Shown: piece by piece, positions 17,041 to 28,603 of the stretch | Numbering within the stretch: position 1 is the first letter of the stretch | How the letters are laid out: every line of letters starts with the position of its first letter | Assembly (NCBI GenBank): GCA_035084275.1 | Contig: CM068742.1 | Coordinates: forward strand, 44,144,001 to 44,208,000 | From: Hydrolagus colliei | Lineage: Eukaryota | Length of the DNA: 64,000 bases | Reading direction: 5' to 3' | Translations under genes and position numbers: made by a program | Notes under the pieces: generated by a model | Told to the model about the DNA's origin: nothing | Seen by the model: the letters and a program-made list of their open reading frames with translations, nothing else | Database searches by the model: none

Positions 17041-18872
17041 GCGGTTGTTTATATTTCTTCTTCCTTCGTTTAATAATCCCGGATTCAAGTCTGAACCGCT
17101 TGCCCGCTGCAATGGGACCGAGCCCGGGTCTTTCACACGAGGCACCTTAGGATGGACATTAATTCGGACACAGTTGATAGATACCATGCAGAAGATATCA
17201 GCTATAACACAATGTTTCGATCCACGAGAGATTCAATAAATGCCATTGCATTTTATTTGTGTCCGCCACAAACGGGTAAGTAAACTTTTTTTTTCGCCCA
17301 CCGAAAAGTCTCCGGCTTCCTCCTTCCTCAAAGTGCGACCATGAAATAAATCTCGTCAATTAGAGAAAACAAGTCAAGGTCCGCGAATCTCGTCCCAAGA
17401 CTGTGTTTGTTGGATGTGTCCTTGTACACGCTGTAATGAACACGAGGGAAGTACATCATGTGAGATTTGGGTTGCTGAGTTTGTACGTGTGGGGGACAGG
17501 GGTCCTGGAAACTGGCAATCCTCGTGCAATGGGTTTGAAATGTATTCTCTGACAAGTGGGGATAATAAATGAGACCTGCTTTCAGATGGATATCTCAGAC
17601 GTGAAATTGCGCCCAGCTGGTTGTGTAAGCAAACAAATAGTTTCATGTTCGACTCTCGACTTGTAGGTTGATGAATAGAACACGACATCGGTAAATGGGT
17701 CTTTAACTCATTTAAGAATAAAACTCCTGCTCTCTAAGTGAAAGACACGGCGACGCCATGTATCCAGAGCAATCACAATTTAAAAGAGTTTTATTAGTTT
17801 CCACTCCTTCACCCGGTTTTTTTTTGTTGCATTAAATCCGAACGTCAGTCAATCTCTGCGGTGACCAGCGCCTGGATGCACAGTCTCGCAGTGCAGAGAT
17901 TTCCCTGAATTTGAGGAACCCTCGCTGGCGTTGATGCACGTAATAGATTGTTGTTGTTATTTGGCGAAAATACTTGTGGTTTGGAAACGCGAGAAGTTAA
18001 ATGGAAACGTACTAGAAGGCAAACACAGCTTCTCTTATTTGACAAATGACATCTGTTTGTAAAATAAACCAGCTTTTAAAAAAAACGCAAAACACGCGGA
18101 TGAGGATAGAGTTGGGGAGGGAGGGGGTTCAATGTAAAGTGAAGTGTTTTTAAACAAACTACTTTTGAGGGTTAATATGAGCCTTTCACTTTCTCCCAAA
18201 ACCTTGTTGAATATAATACCAATGGGATTTTCTTCGCAGTTTAAGATCGAGCTGATCAAGTGTCTTCTAATTTGATTTTTTTTTGGGGGGGGAAAAAAAG
18301 AAAAGAAAAGGGCCAAAATAGTGACAGAGTTAAGCAGTGAGGATGGACAGGTGGTAAGAAATAAATTCACTTCACTCAGCTGGAACTGTAATATATACAC
18401 AGTTATTAAAAGAAATGTTTCAAACGGCAGGCAGACAGTGCTTAGCCTTTGCATAGTTGGATCCCTGAGGGAAAGCCTTTTGATTTTTTAAACAAACGTT
18501 GTGGTTACAGCAGCTTAAAATCCACTTAAAAAGGGACTGGACAACCTGGTTGAGAGACTGGATTCAGGGCTAAGAAATGGTGTGTGTGTGTGTGTGGGGG
18601 GGGGGGCAGAGCAGGAAACAGATCACATGTTTTAAGGGTGAATTCAAAAGGGGGAGAAAAAATGGCAAAGAGACGAGGTACACACTCTGGCAAATACAAA
18701 CCACAGACGGGAGAGACGAAGACAAGTTTTTTTTAGTGAGTGAGTTGAGGGGAATCGAGAGATCGAGACGAGGTTCTGATAGTAACATTCAGCAAATTAG
18801 ACATTGGTGCATTTTACAAAATTCAGCAACTGGACAACAGAGGTCGGACAGTCTGTGGGGGGGGGGGGGGAG

Positions 18873-18930: not shown

Positions 18931-21900
18931 GACACAATGTTTGAGAGAAAATGCGGGCAAAGCAAGTAAAAAAAAACACACGTAAAAACCCAGATAGTCC
19001 CGATTCCAGCCATTCTTGACTTTGTTTTTGTTGGGTCCACAAATCAACGTAACGTATCGTGAAAGAATCAAAACATATTTGCAAACAAGTGCACCATGAT
19101 TTATTACAGGAACAAAATACAACTGTTTTCATGTTTTATTAAAAGTACACTAACATCAAACTGAAACACAAACACCTTTACCTGGGTTATTCCATAGTTC
19201 ATTGCCATTTACAAAGAATTAATTATCATTAGCATTAATAAAAGCCTCCCCCTCCCCCACTCTCTCTCCTCAAAAAGACCAGCTTTATTTTAGTTTGTCT
19301 GGATAATGCAAAGCTTGTTGGTTCGGCTCAAAATGTCCCAAACTCCCTTCTTATGCATCCCGAGCCCTTTTGACCATTTTACTTTATGAAACCGCGGAAT
19401 ATTCCGGCAGAAAATAAATATTCCTTCTTAATTAAAAGCCTATATTTTCGCAGCTTGTCTCTCTCTCTCTCTCCCTCTCAGTCACAGCATCAATCCCCTG
19501 TAAAGTTTGGATGTAAAACTCACAAGGTAACATCTTATTAAACCGTCTGAGTGTAAAAAAAATGAATATTCTCACTCCTTTTCAAGAAAACCCGAAGCAG
19601 ATTTTATCGTCAGAAGAAACAAAAGAATAGTTTAAAAAAAAGACATCAATATTTGCAGTGAGATTTAGTTGAAATGGAGAATGCAACAGAAAGCTACATT
19701 TAAGTGTACACGACGAGGTGTGGAGTGATGGTTCGTTAAAGTGACATTTGGCAGAAGTTTTAATATAAAACTCGTGGTAGTACATTTATGTCTTAAGTGA
19801 AATTAAACAATTGTAAATAAACTAGAGGACTGTCTCCAGGAAACGAAAGTGTGGCACACGCATTTTTCGGATCATTTAATGCTTGACCACACATCAAACT
19901 TTCTAGATTTTGTCCAGTGAATTATGAGGACAGAAATGAAGCTATAGATTGTGTTTCCAAGGGGACTGGGCTATTCGTCTGTTTCACGGGAGAGGATTGA
20001 GGGAGAGAAGTGCCTTTTTCTCAAATGCATCTAAAGTCTGTTAAAAAGGCAGCCATGTTTGTTTGCTTCCATCTGCTTTAAATGAGCCGGGCTTCACACA
20101 CCATTAAAGTATTGCACTGGGCTGCAGTTTCTCCAGGAAGAAAAGAACAACCTTTCACAATAAATATGTTCGTCACCCCCCATTGCAATCAATCAATGTT
20201 TTACTTTGACTGAAACACAATACATAAAGGCAAATGCAACTCAAAAAATGTCAATTTCACGAGCATGGGGTTGAAATTAGCATTCAGTTCCAGGTTAAAC
20301 ATTAATGTTTTGCAAGAGTGGTGTACACATTGGGGGTATTTTCTCTCTCTCTCTCTCTCTCTCTCAAGGATTTGCTAATATTTGAATACTTCACTGAGTA
20401 TACTCCATCGAGAGGGTTCTCAGATGGCGGCTTGGTCGAATTTCTTGAAAAGGAAATTAAAATTAAAATACAATTATAATAGGAAGAAGGAGAACTGCCG
20501 ATAGGGAGTCTAGAATGGAATGGGTTTGAAGTTAATACCGTCAGTCCTGAAAAAGACTGCGCAGGTTAAAAAAAAAAGCAGGTGTCAATTAAAAATAATA
20601 TATAGATTTTTTTAAAATCAAGGAGAAATTCTGCACAACCTACAAATTACCTTTGCCCCCCCCCCCCCACTCCTCCCCTCCCTAAAAAAAATACGGTGTC
20701 CGGGATTATATAGTGTTATAGCTGCGTCAACAGAGTGTTTAATATCATTACAGACAACATCAAAGTTATTAATTTCTATAGAATGATATCGCACAGGATT
20801 AAAGAACACAAGGTGGGTCACACATCAGGCTGCCCTGACCGGGTCTGGTGAACAGAGCCATGAAATAGAACAGATTTGTCTGTGTAAGTGAATTCAAATA
20901 AATCCTGTAATTGGGAACTGTGCTGCAAAATAGAAACATTGTTATTAGGAATAAGCCGCTATCTTCCCCCATAGCCCCTGACGTGTTATGAAATACCACC
21001 GGACGCCCCTGTCATATTCCATGCTAACAAGTTTAAATAGTATTTTAATTGGATTTAACGGTGAAACGATGAAAAATCATTATATATTAGGGCTTTGATG
21101 TCGATGGGCGGCGGTAAAAAGGGTAATGCGAAAGTCGGGGTGGAAGCAAAGAGGGGCCTAGGGGGCTATACTCAGAACAAAACCAGACAATAAGTTGGGA
21201 GTCAGAGCCAAGTGAAACAGCGCAAAAAAAACACACCCTGAAATATCCATAATGTTAAGTGCAACCGAGAAGAGTACAGCAACGGTTTAGGTCTGCCTAT
21301 TTCTGGGTCTTTATAGAGCCGTGTGTGTGTGTGTGTGTGTGCAGGTATGTGTGTATGTGTGTATGTTATCGTTGCATTCTGTGGTCATGCGTGTTTCTCT
21401 ACATGCGTATTAAAAACATACATAGACAATCTATTTGCGTCGTTAATTATTCCATCTAAAAGTGTCTATAGTCATCGCCTTGTGTATCCTGCAGCCTTGC
21501 GTCTAGAATGTTAAAAACCCCAAGCGGCCACATAGCAGGCTCTCGTTAAATGCAAAGAGAAAGCTTGGGAGCACATAGAGGAAAATTAAAACACACACAC
21601 AGACACACACACACACATATATACATACACACACAGGCACACACACAGACACACACTTCCAGCCACTCTCCAGATTCATATTGTGCCTCGTGCTCCTTTA
21701 CTCTGGGCTGGTTGTGAGGTTTATTTTTGATGCAGAGTTGCTAAAGAAAGCTCTCTCATGGCAGTGTGTGCTGGAGCTTTGACCCGGATTATAAAACATT
21801 AATGAAAGCAGCAACTGAATTCTGCACAACCTTCTACCAAAGCAAAGGCAGGCACTGCAGTCTTTACATCTCCAAAAGCCACTGTCTGGAAGCTGTGGGC

Positions 21901-23479: not shown

Positions 23480-23752
<273 letters not shown>

Positions 23753-25540
23753 CTTGACAGCCAAAGAAAAACAGAATTAGTACCGCTATCAGCAGATCTT
23801 TTGTTTTATTTTAATCCTCTTTTTTTGTTTTATATAAATCCACACACACACACACTCACTCACACACACAGACACTCACACACAGACTGACTCACTGACT
23901 CCGTCACACACACTCTGCAAGCTGGAGGCGAACAAGCTTAAGATAACACGTTTTTTTTTGTTGCAAACATTGCGGCCGATTCAAACAGCCTGATAGCAAA
24001 ATCGTACGCAGCATAAGCTTTGAATTATAGGTAACAAAGACACTCTTAAATAATAAGTACAGATGCACGCCATTTCCCGTAGAGAACCGATCCAGCGACA
24101 CCAGTGCCTGGGAACAATCTGTGACAGATATTGGTGCAGAGTTATTGTTTCTATTCCTTTACTGTATGCGTTACACACACTTCCTTTTACATTCCTGGGC
24201 AATGTAGCTTTTCATCAGCTCTGTGATATATGGTGTAATCGTGTACCGAATATAAAAAACAAGGAATGTGTGATAAACAACGAGACATGCAGCCAGGCAT
24301 TCATCAGTTACAAAAGCAAATCTATAATAATATCTTGCACAGGCTCTCGGAACCCCTTTGTTGCAGAATGGAGTTTGGTGTTGTTGTAATTATGGGGACA
24401 TGCCAGTTATGTTATTGGCAACCTTTTTTAAAAATGAATGTGCTGATGCTTCTAATGAAAATAGCATTAATAACAATGATCACTGAATTAGGATTGAAGG
24501 CTCGCGTTATGCAACACCATGCTGTACCGGAGTACCGGAGCTAAATTAAAACTAAACTCCAGATTTCTAATGTGAAATAGGCACGAACTCTGGGTGTATA
24601 TCTACCAACTTGTTTGTCAACAACTGAGTGTGGGCGTATTAATGGTCATGGCTGCGTTTTATTTACCACACGCTCGTTGCCTTTTTTTTGTGAAAGCTTT
24701 ATTTGCTCGGGAGCCATATTTTAGCAGATGAATTAATAAAGTAAAAATAGGAAGTTTGGGTCGCGACCCAGCCTTGGAAAACATCCAGAACGAGAGGTTG
24801 AAAATACTATCCGGACCTAAGGTAAAACCACAACAAGCCTGCTACAAGCTCCAAGCAACTTCAAGCGGCCCTCAGCAAACAACCCAGCGAAAAAAAACAT
24901 GGCATAGAAATGTCCTTTCGATCACCCAAACGCTCTGTGCACTGGAAAACGTGGACAGCTTTGAGAAAGGCTTCCCATGAATTCCCCTCTGGCTAACAAT
25001 CAAAACAAGTTTGGTCAAAGCTGAGGGAGAGGAGGTTTCAAACGTGGGGAATTTAAACCGATTTGCTTTATTTTTCTACCTTGCCCTTTCCGTGGTAACC
25101 TCACGAGCATTAATACTCTCTTTTCTTCCTTTTATTTATTTTTCTTATTCTATTTCTCCCACACAACGTCCCTGTTGTAGGAAACAATAATTTATCGCGA
25201 GTTGGGGAGGGTGTGGGGGTGTGGGGGGAGGGGGGTGGGGGGTGTGGTGAGGGTTGCTGGAAAGATGATTAATCTGTAATATTTATTGATCAATTTCCAA
25301 TTGATTTACATCAGATTATGCCATTAATAGAAGCCTCCTGGTAAAAATAAATCATTGTTATAGTACTTGACTAATACCATCTTATACATAAATTAAGCAT
25401 CAGGCACCCAAATAATTTATATGTGTTTAACCTTACTTATTCTGGCGTAGAATTGCACTGAAGGAGGGAGGGGCAGCAGGGGACGCTTTATCGATTTAGA
25501 TCTATTTTTACTGAACTTTTGTTTCCTTTCCAGCCACTCA

Positions 25541-26137
<597 letters not shown>

Positions 26138-26599
26138 CTAAAAAAATCACTCATTTTCTATCTCATTTGTTTGTATAGATACTGTATGTATATATATATA
26201 TCTGTATGTCTTTTTTTTAAAAAAAAGAAGGAATTGAAAAAAATCCTACAGACAATAGCACTCATATTTGATATCAGAAGCATTTACAGGAACTCGCCCT
26301 TTGAAAATGTATTAATGTTCAATAAGCATTACCGGTCTGTGCACTCCACATTATGCGTGTGAAATCCCACTAGAAACGCGCAGGTTTAACTCAAGGCGAC
26401 TGCAGGATTGCAAAACTCCCTAAATCCAACACCCACCCACTGATACAACTGCGAAAAATTTCCAAACACACGCGATCCACTGAATGCGAAAAAGATTAAC
26501 TTACAATAGAGTGACAAAAGAGGTCCGATTATTAACCATTTTGATTCCAGAAATACATAACGCAGCCATGCTTGTAATTGCTAAACTCTCCCAACTTCG

Positions 26600-26680
26600 A
26601 ATTAGCGAGTTTGGGATTTCCCCCCTCCAAACCCCCCCAATTAGCGAGTTTGGGATTTCCCCCCCCTCCAAACCCCCCCC
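26600..26680 (+). repeat. About 39-bp tandem duplication in NR2F1 intron 1
   Basis: AATTAGCGAGTTTGGGATTT(C)nTCCAAA(C)n x2; copies differ only in C-run lengths. Confidence 0.9.
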
Positions 26681-27058
26681 CCCCCCCCCCCCACACCACC
26701 ACCCACCTCAACTTTAAAGCAAAAATATTTGCATTTGTTTCTCTCTCTATTTTCTTTCGCAGAGAGGAATCTTTACGTCGGCTGCTAACCTTTAAATAAC
26801 GCTTATTTTACAAGCGATTACACGTTATAGATTAACAGGCTAACTTCATTAACGCTCTAATTACTTCATAGCGAGCACATTTGGTCAGGTTGGGAACCCA
26901 AATCTCGCACCCCCCACCCACCCACCCTCACACTCATCTCACCCCCATACCTCACCCACACACCCACCCCCCAAAACAATAACCCCCCGCACAGATAGGA
27001 AACACAACGTCTGATGTTTGCCGGGGACCCACACATTTCTAATTTGAAGTAATATTCA

Positions 27059-27506
<448 letters not shown>

Positions 27507-28603
27507 ATCTCGGGCCCAAAAAGTGCGGGAAAACAAGTTAATCGCAAAGGCTTTTCTTTGTTATTTTTGTGTGTGTGAGGGTTGGTTGGTTAAGGGGGAT
27601 TGTTGTTGTTTTGTGTGTATGTGTGTCTGCGTGTGTGTGTTGTGTGTGTGTGTCTGTCCTGTTGGGTAAGGAGCAGAGAGTTGGAATGGTAGTGGGTTCG
27701 TGAGCTGGTAATAATAAAAAGGCTCCCCCCCCCCCCCACCCACAAATAAAACTTACCCCGCTCACCCTCCCCACTCCAGGGAGAAAAAACAGGGGGGGAA
27801 TCGGAAGGTAGGAATATAACTGCAATCAAGCGACGCACACAAGACACACAGACAGGCACAGACACACACACACACAGGGCGCAGTGAATGAGTGTAGTGT
27901 TGATCAACAGTAACGGGTGTGGTGGGGAGAGGGAGGAGGGATGATGATGAGGGTGGAGGGAGGGGTGGGGTTGTGGGGGGGGGGGGGGGGGGGTGGGGAG
28001 GTTGGGGGTGTGGGAAGGATGAATAAAAATAGAATAGAGGAAATAAATTTCCCGATCAGGGTATATAACAGTCGGGGGCCAAACCCAGGGCAACACACAG
28101 CCAGCCATCCAGGACACTAAATTAGGAGGGGACAGGCAGGTATCTGGGTGGCAGACAGGGAGGGAAGTGGAATGAGAGGGGAGGGGAGTGGGAGAGACAG
28201 GGACAGGGATAGGAACAGGGAGCGTTGGGTTGGTGGGGGGGTGGGGGGGGTGGGGTTAAAGATTAGGAAGTTGGAAAAGATAGAGAGGCGATCTGAATTG
28301 GAAGGAACAAAAAAAAAATTGAACCACGCGATCCAAGGTAAAAGTATGGCGAGTGTATATCCCTTCTTCTTTTTCTTCTTCTTCTTCTTTTCTTCTTCTT
28401 CTCTCTTCTTCTTCGGAGAGGAACACAAAAAATAGAAGATTCGGAATTGGTCACCCTCCCTACCCAACCACTCCCCCACTCCCACACCCCCCCCTCAAAA
28501 CAACAGCAGTGCAAACTCACCAGACCACACACACACACACATACACACAGAGATACACACTCACACAAAAAAAAGACAGTCGACGTTTAAAGCGCCCTAT
28601 TTT
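27507..28603 (-). promoter_or_regulatory. NR2F1: Probable long 5' UTR / proximal promoter of NR2F1, running into an assembly gap
   Basis: Directly upstream of the ATG; low-complexity tracts ((CA)n, C runs, (GAA)n on the sense strand) between unique blocks. The TSS cannot be located from sequence. Confidence 0.5.

Follow-up and report, generated by a model that had tools for sequence, protein, structure and literature searches.

NR2F1 is dosage-sensitive in neurodevelopment. Isoforms lacking the DNA-binding part (DBD) have been described for its paralog NR2F2 (COUP-TFII), and a sequence-only reading of the present locus had invoked such isoforms, made from alternative promoters, as a precedent. 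In three articles (PMC5785710, PMC7016888, PMC10073109), they appear under the names Iso2, Iso3 and Iso4, and DBD-less variants are listed in PMC5785710. According to PMC10073109, NR2F2-Iso2 needs its dimerization surface to bind Iso1 and to act; this paper and PMC7016888 also mention earlier studies, in which ES cells showed enhancement and hepatoma cells inhibition. For NR2F1, PMC11982218 states that the functions of most isoforms have yet to be studied.

DBD-less models of NR2F1 itself exist in databases, as had been supposed: a form starting with MFGYS in birds and mammals, one starting with MPPTQ in mouse RefSeq, and one starting with MWSALTA in zebra shark. The MFGYSVQRGR isoform, named in the sequence-only reading, is among them; the junction MFGYS/VQRGR was seen in duck, owl, dog and guinea pig (among the best 120 of 599 hits), its 273-aa entry (P0121) was found on 85 contigs, and the MFGYS ending is carried by 9 of the 48 stored DBD-less NR2F1-type proteins. 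In two bird models (P0006 and P0130), the terminal part of exon 1 appears in a different frame and is followed by a 116-nt insert whose peptide closes with MFGYS, which places the bird exon inside intron 1. The zebra shark model is one of 15 cartilaginous-fish NR2F1 entries seen with a query that favors full-length forms, and its MWSALTA start occurs in only 1 of 296 stored proteins. A search of the literature outside subscription journals brought up no study of cartilaginous fish that deals with NR2F1 isoforms lacking the DBD.

The window, a stretch of 64,000 nucleotides of Hydrolagus colliei (contig CM068742.1, positions 44,144,001 to 44,208,000), contains a minus-strand gene whose exon 2 is identical to amniote NR2F1 in 165 of 165 residues, compared with 158 of 165 for mammalian NR2F2 and 142 of 164 for NR2F5. 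The gene is therefore NR2F1, as proposed earlier from the letters. Over the first 43 residues, the closest sequence is NR2F1 of Callorhinchus milii (93% identity), followed by a ray and sharks. The gene has the phase-1 intron after the DBD that is described in PMC8608329, a text covering NR2F intron phases, in which isoforms are not mentioned. The coordinates of all features are collected in Table 1.

When aligned to a teleost transcript, the coding sequence shows some eight gaps that break the frame; exon 1 contains six of them, exon 2 one and exon 3 one. All LBD segments are present, with frameshifts in the assembly near 25571 and 23617. Since sequencing reads reveal errors in intron 1, the approximately eight indels in the coding sequence (23480-27506) are likely assembly errors and not signs of a pseudogene. 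Similarly, the doubled 34-nt unit beside a G run is probably a false duplication, because the contig of run X15 has one copy of the unit, then the run. Other findings from CM068742.1 may rest on similar assembly errors. A search of the animal's own 1.0-Gb genome with exon 2 returned NR2F1 and one distant paralog (about 75% to NR2F1/2/5, NR2F6-like by inference) and no NR2F2 exon 2, all as lower bounds; NR2F2 may be missing from the assembly. A second, closer paralog contig is present in run X15.

Table 1. Features of the NR2F1 locus, in positions of the window
Feature	Position	Strand	Remarks
Canonical coding exon 1 (A/B region and DBD)	27060..27506	-	frameshifting indels in assembly; N-terminal 43 aa 93% identical to Callorhinchus milii
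Duplicated 34-nt unit beside G run	26639..26672	.	X15 contig fits to 26638, continues as C run
Intron-1 block alignable to organism A	26241..26611	.	22 substitutions, 27 gap letters; holds both donors
Flagged exon end	26505..26569	-	with two read-supported bases: 22 open codons and one base from ATG 26569 (second ATG 26539)
Flagged donor GTAAGT	26499..26504	-	among differences listed, none here in X15 or X1
Coding end of likely alternative first exon	26333..26351	-	MWSAQT and first base of Ala; phase 1
Donor GTAATG of likely alternative first exon	26327..26332	-	262-nt intron as assembled; score 5.15
MFGYS look-alike ATG...GCTATT/GTCTGT	26248..26265	-	phase 0, poor donor, not significant
Exon 2 (hinge, larger part of LBD)	25542..26070	-	shared acceptor; internal start MPPTQ
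Exon 3 (C-terminal part of LBD, including AF-2 helix)	23480..23752	-	one assembly frameshift near 23617; internal donor after 23567

In the sequence-only reading, an alternative first exon was proposed to end at 26505, in front of a GTAAGT donor. The donor letters, the acceptor before 26070 and phase 1 are all as described when the assembly is taken at face value, but the assembly itself is wrong on the exon side. As assembled, the frame reads ...LLSLY into VQRGR without an in-frame ATG. Over 25700-26638, the contig of the DNA run X15 is nearly identical to the window, with 1 substitution and 4 additional letters. A base absent from the window follows 26506, and another follows 26528, both in this contig and in contigs of a related fish, organism A (runs X1 and X16); these are the only X15 indels between 26505 and 26638. 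In the corrected sequence the exon ends in AATT/GTAAGT, the Tyr codon is gone, and TTG, which had been suggested as the start codon, is out of frame, its frame existing only in the assembly. Moreover, ATG 26569 and ATG 26539, each preceded by A at -3 and followed by G at +4, come into frame without a stop (22 and 12 open codons), contrary to the statement that no in-frame ATG precedes the TTG. This statement and the likeness to MFGYS are thus artefacts of two bases missing from the assembly; errors of a single base, as this case shows, may be enough to produce a spurious resemblance to a known isoform.

The corrected frame is open over 36 codons in both Hydrolagus colliei and organism A, and the 22-residue part of it that starts at ATG 26569 is kept in organism A with 3 of 22 residues changed. 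When intron 1 was shuffled 1000 times with dinucleotides preserved, 32% of the shuffled sequences contained at least one GTAAGT, and the flagged donor ranks 9th among intron-1 donors when scored with a rough matrix (approximate, as in all donor scores given here). An in-frame ATG within 70 nt accompanies 6 of the 21 GTAAGT sites of the window, while an in-frame ATG in strong Kozak context is found at 1 of the 21 GTAAGT and 6 of the 209 GTRAG sites of the assembled window; this rarity is modest support for the flagged site, as the criterion was chosen post hoc. A weak test, the sharing of three 5-residue words with the corrected frame, gave no hit among database representatives. The alternative of a cassette exon was rejected: one upstream AG would delimit 78 nt in frame, preceded by 7 pyrimidines in 19 positions, compared with 18 of 19 at the true acceptor. 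Most likely, the 26505 donor arose by chance or is of minor use, and the frame described for it was owed to the two missing bases.

A better candidate is located 172 nt downstream, where a donor follows position 26333. When the sequence from ATG 26351 to 26333 is spliced in silico to exon 2, it reads MWSAQTA into VQRGR, and 6 of these 7 residues are identical to the zebra shark MWSALTA. The window has 7133 GT sites, counting both strands; when the phase-1 peptides in front of them were compared with the shark start, 6 of 7 residues were matched at a single site, 5 at none and 4 at two. The differences listed for organism A within the 19 nt (26334, 26338 and 26340) are two synonymous changes and a Gln>Leu replacement that yields the zebra shark peptide in 7 of 7 residues, with about 11 inserted letters of organism A within 26241-26355 lacking an assigned position; for X15, no difference is listed across 26333-26351. 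Because of an in-frame stop 7 codons upstream, no usable ATG precedes ATG 26351 (A at -3) in this frame; the shark model has its start in the same setting. Judged by peptide comparison, the site agrees with the first exon of zebra shark isoform X4 in start peptide, start codon, phase and GT donor. The donor score is 5.15 versus 8.53 for the canonical donor, and the teleost nr2f1a intron (L009) holds no counterpart of the start peptide, the best match being 3 of 7. An in-frame start is combined with a donor compatible with exon 2 at ATG 26351 with 26333, and also at the corrected ATG 26569/26539 with 26505. Should transcription begin above 26569, a uORF could start at either of the latter two ATGs (50 and 40 codons, respectively) and would terminate upstream of ATG 26351. 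The predicted product of the 26333 junction has 7 + 266 = 273 residues and is LBD-only.

These results suggest that the start in intron 1 (ATG 26351, donor 26333) likely belongs to the end of an alternative first exon that is spliced to exon 2 and encodes this LBD-only protein. The earlier idea of a DBD-less start in intron 1 thus likely holds at a neighboring donor: a start matching the shark is present, although its donor lies outside the segment flagged earlier. A version of NR2F1 without the DNA-binding part is, on sequence comparison, likely made in Hydrolagus colliei. DBD-less NR2F1 was already annotated in amniotes and one shark; what is new here is an exon end common to the shark and two related fishes.

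Both donors lie in the intron-1 block that aligns to organism A, 26505 in its upstream part; the flanks of the block are unalignable to that fish, and the block was single-copy in a search of the own genome. Rfam gave no match over 25500-28600, and teleost nr2f1a intron 1 (L009) aligned to the window's intron only in a GT-rich repeat and in the 40 nt next to the acceptor. This 40-nt end (26071-26110) is thus conserved in teleost nr2f1a, and read-through peptides show the same for birds and mammals. Sequencing runs matching the locus numbered 22, of which six were examined; none is recorded as RNA, and X1 (organism A) is presumed to be RNA. In X1, the exon-2 contig ends at the acceptor at a depth of 263.5, while one contig of depth 18 runs from the acceptor unbroken through 26241-26611, across both donors. 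No joints to 26070 are listed in the contigs of X1 or X20; contigs drop rare forms, and X20 has approximately 3-5 reads at the start of exon 2. Runs X5 and X10 have no cover on 26400-26660, a stretch that excludes 26333, and so carry no weight either way. For the X1 sample, the unbroken contig speaks mildly against frequent use of either donor.

The same contig and the missing joints in X1 and X20 also weigh against 26333 as an exon end, as do the weak donor, the lack of a teleost counterpart, and the shark entry itself, a single computed model. In addition, the peptide match could reflect a conserved non-coding element, three substitutions being too few to tell. We regard it as possible, if doubtful, that the block 26241-26611 is nothing but such an element, of an enhancer or promoter-proximal kind, in which both donors are cryptic and spliced at noise level, no meaningful short protein is made, and the shark model records low-level noise splicing. 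Apart from the unbroken X1 contig, this explanation would account for the absence of a drop in conservation at the 26505 donor, for both donors scoring below canonical ones, and for N-termini that are unrelated across lineages (MFGYS, ...RKSYA, ...SGAVA, ...KQLGA, MWSALTA). It accords less well with the retention of ATG, frame, phase and GT at 26333 in Hydrolagus colliei, organism A and (by peptide) the shark, or with two of the three substitutions being synonymous; the argument from contigs is moreover weakened by the loss of rare forms in contigs and by its dependence on a single informative RNA run across the site.

It is unlikely that 26505 is a real first-exon donor, used besides or instead of 26333 and giving an LBD-only protein of 289 or 279 residues from ATG 26569 or ATG 26539. 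The strong Kozak context of the corrected ATGs, uncommon by the post hoc count given above, the 36 open codons in both fish, the unchanged donor and a perfect consensus on the intronic side speak in its favor, and they have to be set against the residue changes in organism A, the negative (if weak) word search, the X1 contig running over the donor, the frequency of GTAAGT in shuffled introns, and the failure to find homology to the amniote exon. The last point rests on a direct comparison: when back-translated bird and mustelid MFGYS exons were placed at 26505, 47 and 63 of 150 shuffles scored as high, and the site ranks 16 of 82 GT sites for this match. Across intron 1, these exons found no significant placement, the best site being matched by 25 of 60 shuffles, and the look-alike at 26254 ranks 3rd of the 82 sites. 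A tblastn comparison of 81 N-terminal extensions with the window returned only read-through, other-frame exon-1 and low-complexity matches; blastn of 80 metagenome loci gave no intron match beyond low-complexity sequence and the acceptor end, and the nine of these loci inspected by eye included no amniote or shark NR2F1 with intron 1. The equation of 26505 with the mammalian MFGYS donor, translated from TTG or MPPTQ, has lost most of its basis: a location in intron 1 and phase 1 are common to both exons, but with the TTG frame and Tyr codon confined to the assembly and no homology detected to the back-translated amniote exons, orthology is highly improbable.

With 26333 as the preferred exon end, the following mechanism can be envisaged. 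A promoter in the conserved block upstream would drive a short first exon, which in Hydrolagus colliei would be spliced from 26333 to 26070; translation from ATG 26351 (or MPPTQ) would then yield the hinge and LBD. Such a short protein would be unable to bind DNA and, by analogy with NR2F2-Iso2, may pair with full-length NR2F1 or NR2F2 through the LBD, tuning their activity rather than simply blocking it. Because both inhibition and enhancement are reported in the NR2F2 papers, "modulator" is a safer term than "dominant-negative". If an LBD-only isoform is kept in chimaeras, sharks and amniotes, noise-like database models would deserve testing, and knockouts targeted to the DBD, or mutations in it, would leave such a protein in place.

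Candidate alternative 3' ends were also noticed on the minus strand of this locus. The internal donor of exon 3, TTG/GTAGGT, lies just after FFVRL, and two candidate alternative last exons downstream (17530-17616 and 20821-20922) would replace the AF-2 helix. Position 17616 follows CAG and matches the tails of the X1 protein models of horn shark (26 of 28 residues) and zebra shark (26 of 29), while 20922 follows a good acceptor and matches the tail of the corresponding C. milii model X1 (82%). At two weaker tail matches, 17772 and 17290, the start of the aligned part shows no clean acceptor. The position of the internal exon-3 donor is also where models of crocodilian NR2F1 and ray NR2F2 change to a different tail. 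A more far-reaching proposal, which we offer as speculative and rather doubtful, is that the intron-1 promoter predates the split of cartilaginous and bony vertebrates and has provided an LBD-only modulator throughout, with donor and start peptide sliding along the block. Here, 26505 and 26333 would serve chimaeras and sharks and the MFGYS donor amniotes, and together with AF-2-less tails they would form an ancient, combinatorial set of truncated COUP-TFI proteins.

Compared with known systems, the candidate resembles NR2F2 Iso2, Iso3 and Iso4 in combining an alternative first exon with loss of the DBD and retention of the LBD. However, Iso2 of this paralog starts at an upstream TSS and not inside intron 1, and its function (dimerization with Iso1, with inhibition or enhancement depending on context) has been tested, whereas for NR2F1 a comparable function is postulated by analogy. 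Further minus-strand GTAAGT donors, at 27756, 30893 and 35273, are present upstream of exon 1 and in its 5' UTR region; those at 27756 and 30893 might belong to upstream first exons comparable to the one in NR2F2-Iso2. Another truncated class is formed by nr2f1a models of eel, toadfish and pufferfish (P0276, P0279 and P0280), in which the start MCGLRRQI leads into the DBD only at its second zinc finger. The amniote NR2F1 forms MFGYS (273 aa) and MPPTQ (263 aa, mouse isoform c, P0036) are LBD-only and use the same exon-2 acceptor as the candidate, and in the bird models the MFGYS exon lies inside intron 1, as do both candidate donors here, yet these amniote forms show no detectable sequence homology to either donor. 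The closest counterpart is NR2F1-A isoform X4 of the zebra shark Stegostoma tigrinum (XP_048382726.2, P0268), which is also DBD-less and joins its first exon to exon 2 in phase 1 (MWSALTA/VQRGR); it differs from the protein predicted here in that an alternative last exon of its own replaces the AF-2 helix.
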